Shown here: positions 39,607 to 48,439 of the stretch, one piece after another
Layout: the number at the start of each line of letters is the position of its first letter
Position numbering within the stretch: the stretch's first letter is position 1
Notes under the pieces: generated by a model
Told to the model about the DNA's origin: nothing
The model's input: the letters and a program-made list of their open reading frames with translations, nothing else
Databases searched by the model: none
Translations under genes and position numbers: made by a program
DNA from: an uncultured beta proteobacterium
GTDB taxonomy: Bacteria > Pseudomonadota > Gammaproteobacteria > Burkholderiales > SG8-39
NCBI GenBank assembly: GCA_963714925.1
Contig: CAVQQK010000003.1
Coordinates: forward strand, 80,186-144,185
Reading direction: 5' to 3'
DNA length: 64,000 bases

Positions 39607-39682
39607 GCGGGAATAGCTCAGTTGGTAGAGCGCAACCTTGCCAAGGTTGAGGTCGCGAGTTCGAGACTCGTTTCCCGCTCCA
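39607..39682 (+). tRNA. tRNA-Gly (anticodon GCC)
   Basis: Hand-folded: acceptor GCGGGAA/TTCCCGC, anticodon arm CAACC-TTGCCAA-GGTTG, T-loop TTCGAGA, encoded CCA. Confidence 0.92.
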
Positions 39683-39802
39683 GATCATTACAAGGGGAAG
39701 TCCGTGGCGCGTAGGCTCCGGCATTGTCCGTGCCCTGGCCGAAGCGGCGGCGGCTTTCCCTTTTACGTTTCCGGTGCTCGCTTAGCTTGAGCACCGCACC
39801 CC

Positions 39803-39876
39803 GGCTGGGTGGCAGAGTGGTCATGCAGCGGCCTGCAAAGCCGTGGACGCCGGTTCGATTCCGACCCCAGCCTCCA
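39803..39876 (+). tRNA. tRNA-Cys (anticodon GCA)
   Basis: Acceptor GGCTGGG/CCCAGCC, anticodon loop CTGCAAA, T-loop TTCGATT, encoded CCA. One C:A mismatch in the T-stem. Confidence 0.85.
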
Positions 39877-39894
39877 TCCCTTTTTGCGCAAATT

Positions 39895-39981
39895 GCCCGG
39901 GTGGCGTAACTGGTAGCCGCAGGGGACTTAAAATCCCCTGACCGTAAGGTCGTGTGGGTTCGAATCCCGCCCCGGGCACCA
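39895..39981 (+). tRNA. tRNA-Leu (anticodon TAA)
   Basis: 87 nt. Acceptor GCCCGGG/CCCGGGC, anticodon arm GGGGA-CTTAAAA-TCCCC, long variable arm GACC-GTAA-GGTC, encoded CCA. Confidence 0.92.
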
Positions 39982-40061
39982 ATCGACTGACACCGATTGA
40001 CTGACCGATTCGGGTGACTGATTCAGGCGACTAAATCAGGCGGCCGAATCAGGAGCGCGGC

Positions 40062-40868
40062 ATGGCGAAAACAGATCCTTCCCCAATCGAGCGTGCGGCG
40101 CGTACGCTGTTCGACGCCCATCGCAGGAAGGCAACGTTCGCGCCCTTGCCGGACGCGCTTGCGCCGCAGACCACGGAGGCGGCCTACGATATCCAGGACG
40201 ACTTCGTAGCGCTCAAGTCCGATGTGTTCGGTCCGGTGGCGGGCTGGAAGATTGCGCTCACCACGCCCCAGATGCGCGCCATGGTCGGGGTGAATGACTC
40301 GATCGGCGGCACCCTGCATAGCGGACAGATCCAGAACACGCCGGGCCGCGTGCGTGCAGCGGACTACGCGCATCTGATTGTCGAATTCGAAATCGGGGTG
40401 GCGCTGGCGGAAGACCTGCCGGCCGCCGACGCACCGTATACGCGCGAGCGCGTTGCACGGGCCGTCGGTGCCGTGATGCCGGCACTCGAAATTGCAGACG
40501 ACTGGAACGCCGACTACAAGGACCTGGCCAAGCACGCGCTGCTGATCGCTGCCGACAATGCGTGGAACGAAGGCGCGGTGCTCGGCGCCCCGATCGCCGA
40601 TTGGCGCGGGATTGACCTCGAGGCCATTCGCGGCGTGGCCACGATCAATGGCCAGGTCGTCGGCGAGGGGCAGGGGCGCGACTCGATGGGACACCCGCTC
40701 GAGGCGCTGGCATGGGTTGCCAACCATCTTGCGAAGCGCGGACATGGATTGTGGCGGGGTGCCGTGGTCATCACGGGCAGCCTGGTGACCTCGAAATTCC
40801 CGGTCGCCGGCGACGAGATCCGCTTCGAGCTCGGACCGCTGGGCGCAGTCGAGCTCAAGGTGGCGTAG
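40062..40868 (+). CDS. 2-keto-4-pentenoate hydratase-like protein (MhpD/XylJ hydratase-decarboxylase family, FAH fold)
   Basis: 268 aa with AYDIQDDFVALK, GWKIALTTP and C-terminal ITGSL, typical of the family. AGGAG sits 7 nt upstream of the ATG. Confidence 0.7.
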   Translation: MAKTDPSPIERAARTLFDAHRRKATFAPLPDALAPQTTEAAYDIQDDFVALKSDVFGPVAGWKIALTTPQMRAMVGVNDSIGGTLHSGQIQNTPGRVRAADYAHLIVEFEIGVALAEDLPAADAPYTRERVARAVGAVMPALEIADDWNADYKDLAKHALLIAADNAWNEGAVLGAPIADWRGIDLEAIRGVATINGQVVGEGQGRDSMGHPLEALAWVANHLAKRGHGLWRGAVVITGSLVTSKFPVAGDEIRFELGPLGAVELKVA

Positions 40869-40872
40869 GGCC

Positions 40873-41541
40873 GTGGCGCGCATCGGCGACAGTCTCTCGG
40901 GCAAGCGCGTCTACGTGACGCAAATCGACGAATTCATGGGACCGGAGTTGAAGGCGGTGTTCGCCGAGCACGGTGCCGAGGTGCTCGGTGCGTCCGGTGC
41001 GCGCGAGGCCGACCTGCGCGCCGCCGGCCAGGTGGACGTCCTGGTGTGCAATCTGGGCGTACCGGCGCCGTCGACGCGCGTGCACGAAGTGACCGACGAC
41101 GAGTGGCGCACGGTGTTCGCCGGCATGGTCGACCCGCTGCCGCGCCTGTTTCGTACCGTGCTGCCACAGATGCTCGAGCGGCGTGCGGGCAAGATCGTGG
41201 TCATGGGCAGTGCCACCGCCCTGCGAGGACAAAAGCGCACCTCGACTTACGCCGCCGCGCGCGGCGCACAACTGTCCTACGTCCGCGCCGTCGGCGCCGA
41301 GGTGTCGGCGCAGAACGTGCAGGTCAATCTGATTGCGCAAAACTTCGTCGAAAACCCGATGTACTACCCACCGGCCGTGCAGGCGCTGCCTGCGTTCCAG
41401 GAACGCCTGCGGCGTGAAGTGCCTGCCGGACGGCTCGGTACGGCGCGCGAGGACGCCCTGTTCGCGGTCTTTCTCGCCTCGAGCGAGGTGAGCTTCATCG
41501 CCGGGCAGGCGATTCCGTTCGCTGGCGGCTGGGTCAGCTGA
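40873..41541 (+). CDS. SDR-fold protein with halohydrin dehalogenase fingerprint (putative HHDH)
   Basis: VYVTQIDEFMG gives T-X4-F-X-G in place of TGxxxGxG. GSATALRGQKRTSTYAAARG gives S-X12-Y-X3-R (Arg instead of the SDR Lys). Further blocks align by eye with HheC as recalled. Confidence 0.6.
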   Translation: MARIGDSLSGKRVYVTQIDEFMGPELKAVFAEHGAEVLGASGAREADLRAAGQVDVLVCNLGVPAPSTRVHEVTDDEWRTVFAGMVDPLPRLFRTVLPQMLERRAGKIVVMGSATALRGQKRTSTYAAARGAQLSYVRAVGAEVSAQNVQVNLIAQNFVENPMYYPPAVQALPAFQERLRREVPAGRLGTAREDALFAVFLASSEVSFIAGQAIPFAGGWVS

Positions 41542-43009
41542 ACCCGCCGCCCGCTTCGACCGCCTTTTTCAGCTCGAATTTCTGCACCTTGCCCATCGCG
41601 GTCTTGGGCAGGCTGTCCATGAACAGCACGCGGCGCGGGTGTTTGTAGCGCGCGAGCCGGTCCTGGAACAGCGCGAGGACCCCGGCCTGGTCGATCGAAG
41701 ACCCCGCCACGCGCACGATGCAGGCGCAGGCGGCTTCGCCCCATTTGGCATCGGCAATGCCGACGACGGCCGATTCGGCGATCTCGGCGCAGTCGGCGAG
41801 CACGTTTTCCAGCTCCGCCGGATAGACATTCTCGCCGCCGGAAATGATCACGTCCTTCGATCGTCCGGCGATCCAGTAAAAGCCCTCGGCGTCGCGCCGT
41901 CCGAGGTCGCCGCTGCGAAACCAGCCCTCGACCAGGGCTTCGCGCGTCGCTTCGGGCGCGTTCCAGTAGCCGCGCATGACGTTCGGCCCGCGCACCCAGA
42001 GTTCGCCTACGACGTCGGTTGCCGCCTCGGTGCCGGCATCGTCGACGGCGACCCTGACCTCGCAGTGCAGCGCCGGCTTGCCCGCGCTGCCCAGCCTGGC
42101 CTCGGCATCCTCCTTCAGCAGGACGGTGGCGAAGGGCGCGGTTTCGGTCGAACCGTAGATCTGGCCGACCGGGACGCCGCGCGCGAGGAAGGCGCGGATC
42201 AGCGAGTCCGGCACCACCATCGATCCGGCATGGATCATGCGCAGGCAGGACAGGTCGGTCTGCGCCCATGCCGGCTGCGCGAGCACGGCCGCCATCATCG
42301 CCGGCACCAGGACGCTGAGCGAAGGCCGGTCGGCCGCGAGCGCGGCCAGCCACTGCCCCGGGTCGAAGCGTCGCAACAGGGTGACCGAGGCGCCCGCGAC
42401 GAGGACCGGCAGTGCCTGGATGTTCAGCCCGCCGACGTGGAACATGGGCAGGCTGTTGAGCGCGTGGTCGCGCTGGCCCATGTCGTGGGCGTGGATCGCG
42501 TTCCACGCGTTCCACAGCAGCGCCGCCTGCGTGAGCACGGCACCTTTCGGGCGTCCCGTCGTCCCCGAGGTGTACACGATCAGCGCATCGTCGGCGTCGC
42601 AACCGGCAATCGCTGCCTCGGGTCCGCCACCCTCGAGCACCTCGAAGCCCTGCACCGGCACATCGAGGCCCGCGGCGTGCGCGCGGAACTCGGCGTCCGC
42701 GAACAGCAGCTTCGGCGTGCAGTCGCCCAGCATGTACCGGTGCTCGGCCGCGGTGAGGCGCCAGTTGAGCGGAACGAGGATCGCGCCGAGCCGCGCGAGC
42801 GCGAGCAGGACGACGAGAATCTCGGGGCAGTTGGCGGCAAGCAGGGCGACCCGGTCGCCCCGCGCCACGCCGAGTCCGGCGAGCGCGCGGGTGGCGGACG
42901 CGATGCGTTGCCACAGCGCGCCATAGGCGATGTCCTCGCCCTCGAAGCGGAGCGCGCGCTTGGCGGGGAACTGCGCCGCGTTGCGCTCGACGATGCGCGA
43001 AAGATTCAC
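41534..43009 (-). CDS. AMP-dependent acyl-CoA synthetase/ligase
   Basis: AMP-binding signature IVYTSGTTGRPKGAVL, YGSTE, GDLGRRDAEGFYWIAGRSKD, 491 aa. Confidence 0.88.
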   Translation of the reverse strand: MNLSRIVERNAAQFPAKRALRFEGEDIAYGALWQRIASATRALAGLGVARGDRVALLAANCPEILVVLLALARLGAILVPLNWRLTAAEHRYMLGDCTPKLLFADAEFRAHAAGLDVPVQGFEVLEGGGPEAAIAGCDADDALIVYTSGTTGRPKGAVLTQAALLWNAWNAIHAHDMGQRDHALNSLPMFHVGGLNIQALPVLVAGASVTLLRRFDPGQWLAALAADRPSLSVLVPAMMAAVLAQPAWAQTDLSCLRMIHAGSMVVPDSLIRAFLARGVPVGQIYGSTETAPFATVLLKEDAEARLGSAGKPALHCEVRVAVDDAGTEAATDVVGELWVRGPNVMRGYWNAPEATREALVEGWFRSGDLGRRDAEGFYWIAGRSKDVIISGGENVYPAELENVLADCAEIAESAVVGIADAKWGEAACACIVRVAGSSIDQAGVLALFQDRLARYKHPRRVLFMDSLPKTAMGKVQKFELKKAVEAGGGFS

Positions 43010-44248
43010 TCAGTCGTCTGCCTCGTCGGGTTCGTAGAGCGCTTCGCGTCCGATGCGGTCGAGGCAGAGTTCGGCTGTCCACGGCAGCATGAGGGCGCCG
43101 CAGCGCGAATCTCGGTACAGGCGCTCGAGCGGGAGGCTTTTCAGCATCGATTGTCCGCCGCAGGTGCGGATTGCCAGACGGCACAGGTCGTTGGCGTTCT
43201 CCATCACCGTGAACTGGGTCGCGTAGGCGCGCAACCGCGCGTCCTTGGACGGATCGACCCGCGCATCGTCCAGCATGCGGAGAAAGAGGGCGCGCGTCTG
43301 CTCGAGTTTTATGTGCATCTCGGCAACGGCGATCTGCTTGGTTGGATACATGCGCCGCTTGACCGGCGGCATGCCAGGTACCTCGCCACGCAGGTAGCGG
43401 ACCGTGAACGCATAGGCTGCGACGGCAATGCCCATGTAGGTCGGCGAGAGGGTGGTGAACATATGCGGCCAGCGCGAGGCCGCCTGAAAGTAGACGCCCC
43501 GCGGCATCATCGCTGCATCGTCGCTGACGAACACGTCCTTGAAGACGAGATTGCGCGACACGGTCCCGCGCATGCCGAGCGGATCCCAATCTCCCGTGAT
43601 CTCGAGTCCGGGCGAATCGGCCGGCACCGCCAGATACAGCGTGTCGCGCATGCTGCGGTCCGGACGGTCCTCGGTACACAGCATGCCGTAGTAATTCGCA
43701 GCACCCGAGAGTGATGCGAAAATTTTCTTGCCATTGATCAACCATCCGCCATCCACCTTGGCGGCGAGGGTGCCGAATGGCGCCCTGCCTGCGGCGGCGG
43801 CACTGCCCTCTGAAAAGGGCTGTGCGTAGATGGCACCGTCCTTGACCACGCGCTCGAAGTGAATCTGGCGGTGACGCTCGTGCGCCGCCGTTTCCTCTGT
43901 CGTCAGATCGAGGTCGTCGGTCAGGATGCCCGGCCACAGCGTGGAGCAGGCGTGCATGTTGAAGGTGAGGGCCGTGGCGCCGCAGTATTTTCCGAGCGTT
44001 GCCGACACCAGAGAATAGGTCTTGAAATCCGCACCCCGGCCGCCGAATCGCTCTGGAACACACAGTCCGAGCAGACCAGCCGCGCGCAAATCGGCGTAGT
44101 TCTCGAACGGAAACGTCGCTTCCCGGTCGTAACCCGCCGCGCGCTCGGCAAATCCAGGGCCGAGCGATTCGGCAATGCCGATCAAATCGCGCTGACGATT
44201 GGTCAGCAGATAGGGTTCGCCGCAAATGGCGTAGCGTGGGTCTGGCAC
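43010..44248 (-). CDS. acyl-CoA dehydrogenase-fold flavoprotein (dehydrogenase or ACAD-fold oxygenase)
   Basis: ACAD-like N-terminal (LRAAGLLGLCVPERFGG), middle and C-terminal (ERLYRDSR) domains. The usual EGT-x-E catalytic context is not obvious. GTG 44248, preceded by GAGG and 7 nt after the upstream stop, is preferred over ORF-track start 44362, which overlaps the hydrolase by 107 nt. Confidence 0.7.
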   Translation of the reverse strand: MPDPRYAICGEPYLLTNRQRDLIGIAESLGPGFAERAAGYDREATFPFENYADLRAAGLLGLCVPERFGGRGADFKTYSLVSATLGKYCGATALTFNMHACSTLWPGILTDDLDLTTEETAAHERHRQIHFERVVKDGAIYAQPFSEGSAAAAGRAPFGTLAAKVDGGWLINGKKIFASLSGAANYYGMLCTEDRPDRSMRDTLYLAVPADSPGLEITGDWDPLGMRGTVSRNLVFKDVFVSDDAAMMPRGVYFQAASRWPHMFTTLSPTYMGIAVAAYAFTVRYLRGEVPGMPPVKRRMYPTKQIAVAEMHIKLEQTRALFLRMLDDARVDPSKDARLRAYATQFTVMENANDLCRLAIRTCGGQSMLKSLPLERLYRDSRCGALMLPWTAELCLDRIGREALYEPDEADD

Positions 44249-44255
44249 AGTGACC

Positions 44256-44999
44256 TCAAATTGAGTGGCGTCGTAAGAAGGCGAGGAGGGTGGCGTTGAA
44301 CGCCTCGGGCTGATCCATCGGCCCAAGGTGGCCGCAGCCCGCCAGAATCTCGAGTTCGGCACCGGGAATGCGGGGCGCCATGCGCTGCATGACGCTTGCC
44401 GGCGCGGTGCGGTCGTCGCTGCCTGCGACGAGCAGGGTGGGCACCCGGATGTCGGGCAGCAGGGCGCGGCGATCGAAGGTGGTGAGCAGGGCCACCGCTT
44501 TGCGGTAGGTCTCCGGCGGAACGCGCGCCATGAGGCGTTCCGCGCGCGCCAGTCCGCCGGGGTCCGAGCGGGGACCGCGCATGGTCGGCATCAGCGCGGC
44601 CGCGATATCAGACATGCTACGCCCCGCGTCGAGCGGCGCGATCCGCGCTGCGACGAACTCGCGCGCAAAGTCGCTACTGCCGCCGCCGAACGCGCTCGAG
44701 GTGAAGCAGAGCACGAGCGCGCGCACGCATTGCGGATGGCGTGCGTAGGTTTCCTGCGCGATGAAGCCGCCCATGCTGTGCCCGACCAGAACCGCCGCCT
44801 CACCGACCTCGCGCGCGATCATCCGCAGCAGCGCCGCGGCGATCCGCTCGAGATCATAGGGTTCGACCCCCGGCGCATCACCGTAGCCCGGCTGGTCCCA
44901 GGCGAGCGTCCGGTAGCCGCGCGCCGAAAAGAACGCGCACTGATCATCCCAGGCGCCATGACCGCCGCCGACCCCGTGCAGGAAAACCAGCGTGGTCAC
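44256..44999 (-). CDS. alpha/beta-fold hydrolase
   Basis: 247 aa with the oxyanion FLHGVGG, nucleophile elbow GHSMGG and C-terminal GCGHLGPMDQPE (His). Confidence 0.85.
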   Translation of the reverse strand: MTTLVFLHGVGGGHGAWDDQCAFFSARGYRTLAWDQPGYGDAPGVEPYDLERIAAALLRMIAREVGEAAVLVGHSMGGFIAQETYARHPQCVRALVLCFTSSAFGGGSSDFAREFVAARIAPLDAGRSMSDIAAALMPTMRGPRSDPGGLARAERLMARVPPETYRKAVALLTTFDRRALLPDIRVPTLLVAGSDDRTAPASVMQRMAPRIPGAELEILAGCGHLGPMDQPEAFNATLLAFLRRHSI

Positions 45000-46042
45000 G
45001 CGAGTTCGTTCTGCAGTTGGCCGTCGGCGACGATCGTGCGGCCGTCTAGGTTCAGCGTGCAGTGGCGGAATGGCAGGTCGAAGTGTCCGAGCGTGTAGCG
45101 TCCCGCAACTTCGTTTGCGCCGGTGGAATAGAGAAAATTTCCGGCGAACGCGCGCTGTTCTGTGCCATTGACGTCGCGGCGGTCGTACATGACGAGCGCA
45201 TCCCAGCGCGCACGGGGATTCATGCCCCAGCCGACGTGCGATACCGCATAGGCCTCGCGATCGCCCCAGGCGGCAAAGTACTCGCGCATCAGCTCCGCAT
45301 CGAGCGATTGCCCCTCGATGCGCGTTACGTAATCGGATTCAACCACCAGCCGAACCGGCGATTCGACGTAACGTTTGAAGGTCAGATTGAGGTCGCCCGG
45401 CGCCATCACGAGGGTCCCGTCCACACTGCCGGCGGGCGGAAAGCACAGGCATAAGCCACCCGGCCAGTGCGACAGCGTGCCCGGCTTTTCCGTGTAGCCC
45501 CAGACGCCCCCCACGCGGGCACCCGCGACGTTGATCGTGAGATCCGTGCCTGCGGGCGAGCTCACCGTCAGGCGCTTCGCGGCACGCAGCATGCGCATGG
45601 CCGCCCTCACCTTCTCTTCGTCGACGGGGGAGGGGGCGAGGCGTTCGAGCACCTCCGGATGCTCATTCGAGATGTATAGAACGCGCGCACCGCCCTGCAG
45701 GATCTGCGGCAACTCCGGCGCGTGCATGAGCCCTTCGACCGTGCAATCGGCTACGAACGTGCTCGCGGCAAGTGCCTGGAGCACCGCGCCCATGTCAGTC
45801 AGCGCGACCGACGCGCCGGTGGATCGAATCGGGACGGGCGCCGTCTGCCGTGGCGTGGGCACGATGACGTGAAAAGGCCTGGCGCCGATTCGGGCGAGTC
45901 CGAGTTCGGCCAGCTGAACGTTCAGCGGCCTCGATTGGGACTCTGATAGCACCGCGCAAACGTCGCCCGCGCCCACTTTGCAACGCGCGAACACGTCAGC
46001 AAAGAGGTCGATCCATTTGGCTTCGATTCGGTCGTTGATCAT
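44996..46042 (-). CDS. NicX-like 2,5-dihydroxypyridine 5,6-dioxygenase family protein (aminopeptidase-T/M29 fold)
   Basis: Blocks SHWPGG, GTLVMAPGDLNLTFKRY, SHVGWGMNPRARW, RAFAGNFLYSTG and GHFDLPF parallel P. putida NicX as recalled. That includes the His...His-x-Asp positions used for Fe(II). ATG 46042 has GGAG upstream. Confidence 0.55.
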   Translation of the reverse strand: MINDRIEAKWIDLFADVFARCKVGAGDVCAVLSESQSRPLNVQLAELGLARIGARPFHVIVPTPRQTAPVPIRSTGASVALTDMGAVLQALAASTFVADCTVEGLMHAPELPQILQGGARVLYISNEHPEVLERLAPSPVDEEKVRAAMRMLRAAKRLTVSSPAGTDLTINVAGARVGGVWGYTEKPGTLSHWPGGLCLCFPPAGSVDGTLVMAPGDLNLTFKRYVESPVRLVVESDYVTRIEGQSLDAELMREYFAAWGDREAYAVSHVGWGMNPRARWDALVMYDRRDVNGTEQRAFAGNFLYSTGANEVAGRYTLGHFDLPFRHCTLNLDGRTIVADGQLQNELA

Positions 46043-46137
46043 GAGCACTCCGGGCAGCAGGGCGTATTCATACCGCAAAAAAATGCGCTGCGCAGAAAGC
46101 GCATGAGCGATGACGTAATCCCGTAAAATGAAATGCG

Positions 46138-46620
46138 ATGATCGTCTACGACCTGCAATGCGGCGATGGCCACCGATTCGAAGGCTGGTTCGGTTCGGCG
46201 GATGAGTTCCAGGCGCAGTGCGCCCGCGGCCTGCTGACCTGTCCGAATTGTGGCGTGACGGACGTCGTGCGCGTGCCCTCGGCGGCGCGGATCAATACGG
46301 GTGTCTCCATCCAACCCCAGCAGGCGCCGCAGTCGCATGAGATGGCGCGGGAGGCGTCCGGGGTGCCGGTAGAAGGCACTGAGGGCCGGGACCCGATTGC
46401 GATCGCGCAGATGCTTTATTCGCGGTTCGTCGACACACTGCTGACACAGACCGAGGACGTTGGTAAGGATTTTCCGGCCGAAGCGCGGCGCATCCATAGC
46501 GACCAGGCCCCCAAGCGCGGTATTCGAGGCCAGGCCACGCAAGAGGAGCATGACGCCCTGGTGGACGAAGGGATTCCGGTTGCGCGGCTACCGATACCCT
46601 CCGACGGACACTGGAATTGA
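46138..46620 (+). CDS. DUF1178 zinc-ribbon protein
   Basis: MIVYDLQCGDGHRFEGWFGSADEFQAQCARGLLTCPNCG, the characteristic DUF1178 N-terminus. Confidence 0.7.
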   Translation: MIVYDLQCGDGHRFEGWFGSADEFQAQCARGLLTCPNCGVTDVVRVPSAARINTGVSIQPQQAPQSHEMAREASGVPVEGTEGRDPIAIAQMLYSRFVDTLLTQTEDVGKDFPAEARRIHSDQAPKRGIRGQATQEEHDALVDEGIPVARLPIPSDGHWN

Positions 46621-46701: not shown

Positions 46702-47352
46702 CTATTCCACTGCCCCTGAACGCACCAGGAGCACCTCTAGCTCCTTCATGTCCCTCATACGGGCGATCTTCAGCGCGGTCTGCCCCGACCCTGATCTGTA
46801 ATTGACGTCCGGGTCCCGGTACAGGATGACTTTCGCTACCGCCGAATTTCCGTTCCTCGCGGCCAGCATCAACGCCGTATAGGTGTTGGGTGCCACGGCG
46901 TCCTTGTTGGCGCCACGATCGAGCAGCAGTTTCGCCACGCCGGCATGCCCGGCAAACGCCGCGTAATGCAGCGGTGCCCATCCCTGTTTTGGATTGAGCT
47001 CCCCCCCCGCGTCCAACAGGCGGCGCACGACGCTTTCGTCGCCCTTCAGGCAGGCCATCAACAGCGCGGTATCGCCAAACGAGGTGCGTTGACCCACATT
47101 GGCCCGACGCGCAATCAACAGGGCGACAATCTTGTCGCTTCCCTGGCGGGCCGCAATCATCAGGATCGAGTTGCCTTTCGAGTCCGTCGTATTCGGATCC
47201 ACCCCTTGGTTCAGGAGCTTGCGGACCGCATCGATATCATCGGCTTCCACAGCGCTAAAAATCTTTTCGTACGAAGATTCAGATGACGCCTCTGTAAAAG
47301 CAAAAATACACATAACTACAGATAGATATAAGATGTATTTCATATTTAACAT
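46702..47352 (-). CDS. secreted ankyrin-repeat protein
   Basis: Signal peptide MLNMKYILYLSVVMCIFAFTEASS, then about 5-6 ANK repeats (GNSILMIAARQG, GDTALLMACLKG, WAPLHYAAFAGH, YTALMLAARNGN, GQTALKIA). The first ~25 codons are AT-rich and the rest is GC-rich. The alternative start is 47343. Confidence 0.85.
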   Translation of the reverse strand: MLNMKYILYLSVVMCIFAFTEASSESSYEKIFSAVEADDIDAVRKLLNQGVDPNTTDSKGNSILMIAARQGSDKIVALLIARRANVGQRTSFGDTALLMACLKGDESVVRRLLDAGGELNPKQGWAPLHYAAFAGHAGVAKLLLDRGANKDAVAPNTYTALMLAARNGNSAVAKVILYRDPDVNYRSGSGQTALKIARMRDMKELEVLLVRSGAVE

Positions 47353-47431
47353 TAACTTATATAAATGTTATGTATCAGATAGTTGAAGTCATTTGTGTGA
47401 ATAAACATTACTAAATAACTATATCAATTTG

Positions 47432-48439
47432 TTATTTATACAATTTCTTGTACATGAATAACATTTCAGCCGAAAATAACCTCGGGTTGACCGGATGAGA
47501 CGTCAGCGACCTGGCCCTGCCCATGTACTGTGCAAATCGTGCCCACTCGAGGGCCGAGGCCGAACCTTTTCGAGGCACGACCTCGGTCCCATAAATACGC
47601 CGGCCCGCCAGCGAATCCGCGACCTGGTCGATCGCATGTTTCTGCAACACTTCCGCCAGGGCGTCCAGTGTCTCTCGGTTGCTTGCCTCGGGGATGGAAT
47701 CCGGGTCACCACGGGCGATTGCTGCGATGAACGGGGCTGTCAAAGTGCCTCGTTCACCGGCCGCATATTCGTAGGCACTGCGAGGAGATCCGCCGGCAAA
47801 CGCCAGCCACCGCGCGGCGTCGCAGGAGTCCCCCTGCTCCTCCAGCCAGGCAAGCGCGGCGCGTTCCTCGGGACGTGGTACCGCAACGATCACGCACCGG
47901 CTCCGGATTGTCGGAAGTAACCGCGCCGGTTGATGGGACACCAGAATGAACATGGCACCGGGGGGCGGTTCCTCGAGACCTTTGAGGAGCGCGTTTGCGG
48001 CATGCACATTCATGGCCTCCGCCGGATGGACGAGCGCCACGCGACGGCCCCCCCGGTGAGAGCCGAGGTAGAGGAAATCCGATAGTTCGCGGACCTGGTC
48101 GATCTTGATCTCGAGGCTCGGCTTGGCACCCCGCACGCCCCGCGCCCCCCCTTCTACTCCGGGCGCCGCGTCCTCGGCGTCCGATCTCTGCGCGGCAACT
48201 GCCTCTGGCTCGATCCGGCGCAGGTCCGGGTGATTCCCGGACGCCACCAATCGGCAACCGTCGCAGCGACTGCAGGCGTCCCCCTCGGTGGTCGGTGTCT
48301 CGCACAACAGGCGCGTCGCGAGTTGCTCCGCAAGCGCCAGCTTGCCGATGCCTGCCGGCCCTTGGATGAGCACCGCGTGCGGAAGTCGGTCGACCTGGCT
48401 ACGGAGCACATTCCAGATCGACTCATTAAATATAAACAT
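47432..48439 (-). CDS. holB: DNA polymerase III subunit delta-prime
   Basis: HAVLIQGPAGIGKLALAEQLATRLLCE, Cys cluster C-x2-C-x-GC, SRC motif (IRSRCV). Confidence 0.9.
   Translation of the reverse strand: MFIFNESIWNVLRSQVDRLPHAVLIQGPAGIGKLALAEQLATRLLCETPTTEGDACSRCDGCRLVASGNHPDLRRIEPEAVAAQRSDAEDAAPGVEGGARGVRGAKPSLEIKIDQVRELSDFLYLGSHRGGRRVALVHPAEAMNVHAANALLKGLEEPPPGAMFILVSHQPARLLPTIRSRCVIVAVPRPEERAALAWLEEQGDSCDAARWLAFAGGSPRSAYEYAAGERGTLTAPFIAAIARGDPDSIPEASNRETLDALAEVLQKHAIDQVADSLAGRRIYGTEVVPRKGSASALEWARFAQYMGRARSLTSHPVNPRLFSAEMLFMYKKLYK

Follow-up and report, generated by a model that had tools for sequence, protein, structure and literature searches.

A probable D-type halohydrin dehalogenase gene next to an MhpD-like hydratase gene in an uncultured Burkholderiales bacterium

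The motif pair T-X4-F/Y-X-G and S-X12-Y-X3-R was published in 2014 as the fingerprint of the halohydrin dehalogenase (HHDH) family, and a search with this fingerprint gave 37 new HHDH genes, of which all 19 that were assayed encoded active enzymes (PMC4989007). The first of the two motifs lines the nucleophile/halide pocket in HHDHs (PMC4989007, PMC11976700). The mechanistic model of the family is HheC from Agrobacterium radiobacter AD1 (PDB 1pwx), while the solved enzymes nearest to the protein described here are HheD2, HheD8 and HheB of Corynebacterium sp. N-1074 (4zd6). Classical short-chain dehydrogenases/reductases (SDRs) bind a dinucleotide and carry a T-G-X3-G-X-G loop and a catalytic Lys, whereas our protein has T-X4-F-X-G and an Arg at these places. 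It is encoded in a 64,000-nt stretch of contig CAVQQK010000003.1 (hereafter the window), assembled from an uncultured beta proteobacterium of the Burkholderiales, and is very probably a D-subtype HHDH, an SDR homologue that would no longer bind NAD(P).

The HHDH open reading frame (ORF; Table 1) is intact, encoding 222 aa from a GTG start to a TGA stop at 41539-41541, and the start position is common to its orthologues, some of which use ATG and others GTG. The position of the SDR glycine-rich loop is taken by VYVTQIDEFMGPEL, which contains T16-X4-F21-X-G23, and that of the SDR Ser-Tyr-Lys by GSATALRGQKRTSTYAAARG, which contains S113-X12-Y126-X3-R130. Both strings had been quoted in a preliminary description of this DNA and are present exactly in the translation. 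TGxxxGxG and YxxxK are absent from the whole 222-aa protein, and [TS]G-x2-3-[GA]-x-G does not occur in its first 60 residues. The Pfam profiles adh_short_C2 and adh_short match over residues 50-220 only; as the match starts at residue 50, the dinucleotide-loop portion of the profile is without a counterpart. All 178 NCBIfam matches are to SDR models, none of these models reaches its cut-off, and the listed matches fall far under it (for example, 105 bits vs 312). Annotation pipelines label relatives of this protein as ordinary NAD(P)-dependent SDR oxidoreductases. Such a reading would draw on the two Pfam matches, on the source names of the homologues, which are all SDR-type, and on the predicted SDR fold. 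Against it stand the restricted Pfam coverage, in which the cofactor-loop part is missing, and the poor NCBIfam scores.

The search ranks separate these two readings further. When the window protein is compared with all PDB chains by phmmer, the top matches, all full-length, are HheD2 (7b73, 1.1e-75), HheD8-M3 (8xxb, 2.5e-74) and HheB (4zd6, 1.5e-52). The published papers identify 7b73 as HheD2 from gamma proteobacterium HTCC2207, and 8xxb as HheD8-M3 from Thauera aminoaromatica S2 with a chloride in the halide site. FabG-type SDRs appear at ~1e-26, aligned only from residue ~50, and the L-2-keto-3-deoxyfuconate dehydrogenase structures 8y11 and 8xwk at 1.6e-16. With FabG and L-2-keto-3-deoxyfuconate 4-dehydrogenase, the protein has in common a Rossmann-type SDR fold and ~26-28% identity over the C-terminal two-thirds. 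The HheA, HheC and HheG structures reach only 1e-15 to 1e-22 by sequence. The comparison with characterised Hhe enzymes that the preliminary description had called for is thus clearly positive, with HheD2, HheD8 and HheB at the top.

An alignment of the window protein that includes HheD2, HheD8 and HheB (A1) gives full-length identities of 56% to HheD2, 59% to HheD8-M3 and 48% to HheB. T16, G23, S113, Y126 and R130 do not vary in A1, and position 21 is F or Y, with HheB having Tyr for Phe in this otherwise shared motif; the Ser, Tyr and Arg of the triad are constant in alignment A2 as well. The three catalytic residues align with S117, Y130 and R134 of HheD8, a triad in which all ten substitutions reported in the published paper were inactive. 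Of the eight pocket residues that were selected for the engineering of HheD8, here mapped onto A1, six are identical in the window protein (F21, A65, Q156, N157, Y164 and R178). HheC is more distant: BLASTP gives 31% identity (E 2e-21) over query residues 24-220 only, and HheC (254 aa) has a C-terminal extension, although both motifs are common to the two proteins. The HheC sequence used in this comparison is 100% identical to 1pwx. Six blocks that had been matched to HheC by eye (GQVDVLV-N, SAT, STY-x-AR, RLGT-x-E, FLAS and GQ-x3-AGG) are all aligned by BLASTP against the true HheC.

The predicted structure leads to the same family. The AlphaFold2 model, for which 42 sequences were used, has a mean pLDDT of 83 and a pTM of 0.84, with low confidence at the C-terminal tip, among other places. 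In a Foldseek search of the PDB, HheD2, HheD8 and HheB fill places 1 to 9 (E 2e-23 to 1e-17, TM 0.85-0.88), with HheD2 and HheD8 the best structural matches (TM 0.86-0.88), and the triad and fold of HheB are the same as those of the window protein. NAD(P)-dependent SDRs lie near 1e-14, below all HHDH matches. For 8y11 and 8xwk the values are 1.6e-16 by sequence and ~1e-13 by fold, as against 1e-75 and 2e-23 for HheD2. Together with the lack of TGxxxGxG and YxxxK in the window protein and in 120 close homologues, these ranks leave the NAD(P)-dependent SDR reading with a negligible probability.

Conservation of the motifs among close relatives had been chosen beforehand as the point on which the HHDH reading could fail. 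Both motifs are kept in 120/120 of the closest database homologues (71-100% identity), in none of which a Lys or a glycine-rich loop was found, and in 79 of 80 species-level genome loci (58-76% identity). The single exception, L021 4211-4888 (68% identity), has Val for the Thr of motif 1 (RVLIVQAADFMGP) and keeps F-X-G and Ser-Tyr-Arg; natural variation at this Thr position has already been reported (PMC11976700). In a representative library clustered at 50% identity, most full-length matches of upper rank keep the motifs, and the first proteins that combine a glycine-rich loop with Lys come at E ~1e-22, with identities of <=38%. Four representatives, P0247 (379 aa), P0340 (403 aa), P0359 (423 aa) and P0362 (516 aa), are far longer than the usual ~225 aa; a segment of each resembles HHDHs or SDRs, and they may be fusion proteins or artefacts of gene calling.

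The relatives are numerous and poorly named. D-type-like proteins have a wide distribution among Burkholderiales of freshwater and soil and among other Proteobacteria, occurring in at least 529 species-level genomes. The closest relative in the species-level genome collection has 76% identity, and metagenome contigs reach 95-100%. The HHDH-like sequence space is compact, with 58 representative clusters at E <=1e-30. The earlier remark that the family is small does not hold: HheD to HheD38 had been catalogued by 2016, including in Table S1 entries from the Burkholderiales Methylibium, Limnohabitans, Curvibacter and Ideonella (PMC4989007). The homologues P0007, P0011, P0014, P0044 and others bear pipeline names such as '2-keto-3-deoxy-L-fuconate dehydrogenase', 'NAD(P)-dependent dehydrogenase' and 'SDR family oxidoreductase', and it looks as if pipelines mis-annotate D-type HHDHs systematically as SDR-type enzymes.

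To place the protein within the family, we used a neighbour-joining distance tree with HheB as the root, which comprises the window protein, 85 relatives and the three solved enzymes. Two sister clades are recovered, one with HheD2 and HheD8 and the other with the window protein; HheB lies outside on a long separate branch. Pairwise identities follow this pattern, at 61% between HheD2 and HheD8, 56-59% between the window protein and either of these, and 45-49% between each of the three and HheB. For comparison, HheD19 to HheD38 were catalogued at 57-95% identity to the verified HheD to HheD6 (PMC4989007). We file the window protein as a putative D-type HHDH, in a sub-clade for which no characterised member was found.

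Several observations weigh against this assignment. Two of the eight mapped pocket positions are unlike those of HheD8: Q120 takes the place of M124, and T123 that of R127. Compared with other D-type proteins in A1, the beta2-alpha2 loop of the 222-aa clade is shorter by six residues; lengths are otherwise equal to those of HheD2 and HheD8. In the model, residues 114-120, which form the loop directly after the catalytic Ser, are of low confidence. The tree has only the three solved enzymes as references, and the comparison with solved structures covers subtypes A, B, C, D and G. The characterised HheD2 and HheD8 sit in the sister sub-clade.

The loop deletion can be located at residues ~39-41 (window region 40987-40992, A1 columns 40-45). 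The six residues are present in the 227/228-aa relatives as well as in HheD2, HheD8 and HheB, and the deletion coincides with the clade (>=85% identity) in which the HHDH gene adjoins a hydratase gene.

The preliminary description had proposed a cofactor-independent HHDH in place of an NAD(P)-dependent SDR. Sequence, motifs, predicted fold and phylogeny give strong support to membership in the HHDH family; catalytic activity and lack of cofactor binding we infer. Halide release and epoxide opening are expected because 19/19 motif-selected candidates were active (PMC4989007), and an anion pocket that does not hold NAD(P) is expected because of the two motifs and the chloride in the homologous site of 8xxb. 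If the chemistry follows that of HheC as described previously (PMC4989007, PMC11976700), Ser113 would hydrogen-bond and position the substrate hydroxyl, and Tyr126, its pKa lowered by Arg130, would take the hydroxyl proton. The resulting alkoxide would displace the vicinal halide intramolecularly to form the epoxide, and the halide would exit into a pocket made of T16, F21, G23 and nearby loops, at what was formerly the nicotinamide-cofactor site. In the reverse direction, a halide, azide, cyanide or nitrite bound in this pocket could open epoxides.

The gene itself is under strong purifying selection, with a ratio of nonsynonymous to synonymous substitution rates (dN/dS) of 0.058 against the 95% orthologue and 0.120 against the 85% orthologue. 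The observation lies far beyond chance, because the match to a solved HHDH has an E of 1e-75 and the orthologue dN/dS is 0.06-0.12. The GC content of the HHDH gene (0.68, and 0.83 at third codon positions) is inside the range of the neighbouring genes, and this composition check gave no sign of recent foreign origin.

Table 1. Positions in the window of the HHDH gene, its motifs and the surrounding features.
Feature	Position	Strand	Basis
HHDH gene, D-type (probable)	40873..41541	+	ORF and translation, solved relatives, fold search
HHDH motif 1 codons, T16-Q-I-D-E-F21-M-G23	40918..40941	+	translation, alignment A1
HHDH motif 2 codons, S113-X12-Y126-X3-R130 (catalytic triad)	41209..41262	+	alignments A1 and A2
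MhpD-like hydratase/decarboxylase, FAA_hydrolase fold, 268 aa	40062..40868	+	Pfam PF01557
Shine-Dalgarno-like AAGGTGG in the 3′-terminal codons of the hydratase gene, 9 nt before the HHDH GTG	40857..40863	+	sequence
Convergent acyl-CoA ligase, last gene of a four-gene operon	41534..43009	-	Pfam AMP-binding
ACAD type-2-like flavoprotein	43010-44248	-	convergent operon
Alpha/beta hydrolase, GHSMGG serine nucleophile, PcaD-like matches	44256-44999	-	convergent operon
NicX-like dioxygenase	44996-46042	-	convergent operon
tRNA-Gly, tRNA-Cys, tRNA-Leu cluster, left bound of the variable region	39607..39981	+	ARAGORN

Directly upstream of the HHDH gene lies a hydratase gene, at the 4-nt distance from an MhpD-type hydratase that had been noted earlier and that the sequence confirms: its TAG stop (40866-40868) is followed by ggcc and then by the GTG at 40873. 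The best solved relative of the hydratase is E. coli MhpD (2.7e-24), then the NahK decarboxylase, and its NCBIfam matches are all far under cut-off. The hydratase gene starts just 80 nt after tRNA-Leu. The AAGGTGG site and the 4-nt gap are kept in the orthologous loci L001, L003 and L007. A promoter scan of 39850-41750 revealed no promoter-like site, and a terminator scan of the same interval revealed one terminator-like site, no more than shuffles predict. The spacing and the ribosome-binding arrangement suggest that the HHDH and hydratase genes are probably co-transcribed and translationally coupled.

This pairing invites a metabolic explanation, in which hydratase and HHDH would form a two-step module. 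A halogenated 2-oxopent-4-enoate-type meta-cleavage intermediate would be hydrated to a vicinal halohydrin, such as 5-chloro-4-hydroxy-2-oxopentanoate, and then converted to an epoxide. A 5-halo-2-oxopent-4-enoate-type intermediate has been described for the meta-cleavage of 4-chlorocatechol. By our own chemical inference, hydrated 5-halo-2-oxopent-4-enoate has a C4 hydroxyl beside a C5 halogen, which is the HHDH substrate class. The hydratase is MhpD-like, the 4-nt spacing and the Shine-Dalgarno-like site in the hydratase 3′ end fit such a module, and the arrangement is kept down to 85% HHDH and 79% hydratase identity. If true, no HHDH before this one would have had a native substrate defined in an aromatic or heterocycle meta-cleavage pathway.

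Comparison across lineages points the other way. We searched all loci by tblastn with six cluster proteins of the window and found the hydratase beside HHDH in four loci only, all with >=85% HHDH identity. The loci at this level share uvrC, pgsA, the tRNAs, hydratase, HHDH, the convergent ligase, ACAD-like, alpha/beta hydrolase and NicX-like genes, DUF1178, holB and tmk. The pairing is thus confined to one lineage that shares the whole neighbourhood, and it may just reflect recent common ancestry. Among the 80 species-level loci (58-76% identity), none has the hydratase next to HHDH; at L033, a distant FAA-hydrolase (29% identity) lies 4 kb from the HHDH gene. Relatives at 74-80% identity occupy unrelated contexts: at 78-80% the HHDH gene stands between an Mrp antiporter/Na-Ca exchanger and a nonribosomal peptide synthetase (NRPS) cluster, and at 74-75% one has a CMD-family neighbour and another TctC. 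When all ORFs within 3.5 kb of HHDH in the 80 species-level loci were clustered, no neighbour family occurred in more than 9/80, and several of the top clusters resembled spurious high-GC ORFs or within-genus synteny.

The hydratase, in turn, has other partners. Four hydratase orthologues (64-72% identity) were looked up, in L088-L091, of which L089, L090 and L091 are at the chromosomal position of the window, and the HHDH gene is absent from all four of these loci. At L088, L090 and L091 the hydratase gene closes an operon in which 3-HAO and Amidohydro_2 (ACMSD-like) genes precede it. In L088 and L090 this operon converges on the same ligase and ACAD-like genes as in the window, and the window hydratase and its four convergent genes are 63-81% identical to their L090 counterparts. 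At L091, glyoxalase-family and enoyl-CoA hydratase genes lie between the hydratase gene and a truncated ligase gene, and at L089 an alpha/beta hydrolase gene directly follows the hydratase gene. Next to the hydratase gene of the window there is no ring-cleavage gene whose product could supply the hydratase, and no 3-HAO or ACMSD homologue occurs anywhere in the 64 kb. With hydratase orthologues going together with 3-HAO and ACMSD-like genes and without HHDH, and with the pairing present in 0/80 of the species-level loci, we regard the two-step module as very unlikely.

The whole region from the tRNA-Gly/Cys/Leu cluster to DUF1178, holB and tmk (window 39982-46617) varies in gene content among related Burkholderiales. 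Some lineages have 3-HAO, ACMSD-like and hydratase genes there and one has just the hydratase and alpha/beta hydrolase genes, whereas in the window lineage 3-HAO and ACMSD are missing and the HHDH gene is present. The HHDH gene was apparently gained in one narrow Burkholderiales lineage, at the junction of the convergent hydratase and ligase genes. On this simplest reading, in which a stretch just downstream of the tRNA cluster changes its gene content and took up the HHDH gene in one lineage, the neighbourhood is weak evidence on the physiological substrate. The preliminary description had taken the hydratase context as a possible pointer to a different substrate. Conservation does not support this suggestion, since the pairing is seen only at >=85% identity and in 0/80 loci elsewhere; adjacency to the hydratase is a quirk of one narrow lineage and gives no family-wide clue to substrates. 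It had also remarked that no epoxide hydrolase gene adjoins the HHDH gene, in contrast to the HheC gene, which is in an operon with an epoxide hydrolase gene (PMC11976700). The remark is true here, where the neighbours are the hydratase and convergent ligase genes, but the situation is typical, as only two known HHDH genes have such a partner (PMC4989007).

On the minus strand, a four-gene operon (41534-46042) converges on the HHDH gene, and the ligase stop and the HHDH 3′ end have 8 nt in common. The ligase is 63% identical to the L090 ligase. The NicX-like protein is a clear homologue of the 2,5-dihydroxypyridine 5,6-dioxygenase NicX (E 3e-60 to 7cn3) and gave no match in the Pfam copy used here. 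The gene content suggests catabolism of a pyridine ring or related heterocycle with a CoA-thioester step. As far as the evidence shows, this operon is context only and no part of HHDH function. Its alpha/beta hydrolase was considered as the missing epoxide hydrolase and rejected, given its serine nucleophile motif and the conservation of the operon without HHDH. The mechanically called ACAD-like ORF (43010-44362, minus strand) has 450 aa with a GTG at 44362, whereas orthologues have 412 aa and the tblastn alignment runs from 44248; the 450-aa form would run ~100 nt into the alpha/beta hydrolase gene and is probably over-extended. Further along, just beyond the ankyrin-repeat/holB region, GC drops sharply to 0.48 at 47000-47599 vs a window mean of 0.64.

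A broader question is what D-type HHDHs do in their hosts. The window protein may perform HHDH chemistry in vitro and yet have a native role other than the degradation of halogenated xenobiotics, as a stand-alone gene of housekeeping type. It might, for example, use an abundant anion to detoxify epoxides of endogenous or environmental origin, or convert a natural halohydrin or similar metabolite. The strong purifying selection, the presence of relatives in at least 529 species genomes and the highly variable contexts with no conserved operon partner are all consistent with this idea. The literature leaves room for it too: one review cannot exclude other physiological functions and finds an epoxide hydrolase linked to two HHDH genes only (PMC4989007), and the substrates assayed so far are probably not the natural ones (PMC11976700). 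On the other side, any particular native substrate would be conjectural. A search on HHDH gene neighbourhoods and native substrates found nothing relevant in the literature collection searched. We consider such a role possible, if somewhat doubtful; it refines, and does not replace, the reading of the protein as a D-type HHDH.

As a D-type HHDH, the window protein is a fresh but ordinary member of an already catalogued subtype, and the outcome of this work is the correct re-annotation of a protein that pipelines label as an SDR. Neither the mis-labelling nor the lack of an operon partner will surprise specialists, and the lineage-specific arrangement with the hydratase does not generalise. D-type HHDH genes have no conserved operon partner, so gene context is of little help on the long-standing question of their native substrates. 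HHDHs are valued as biocatalysts for the synthesis of chiral epoxides, of beta-substituted alcohols and, in the case of HheD8, of oxetanes. Any new natural variant could serve as a basis for engineering, and the protein described here differs from HheD8 at two of the pocket sites mutated when that enzyme was engineered.

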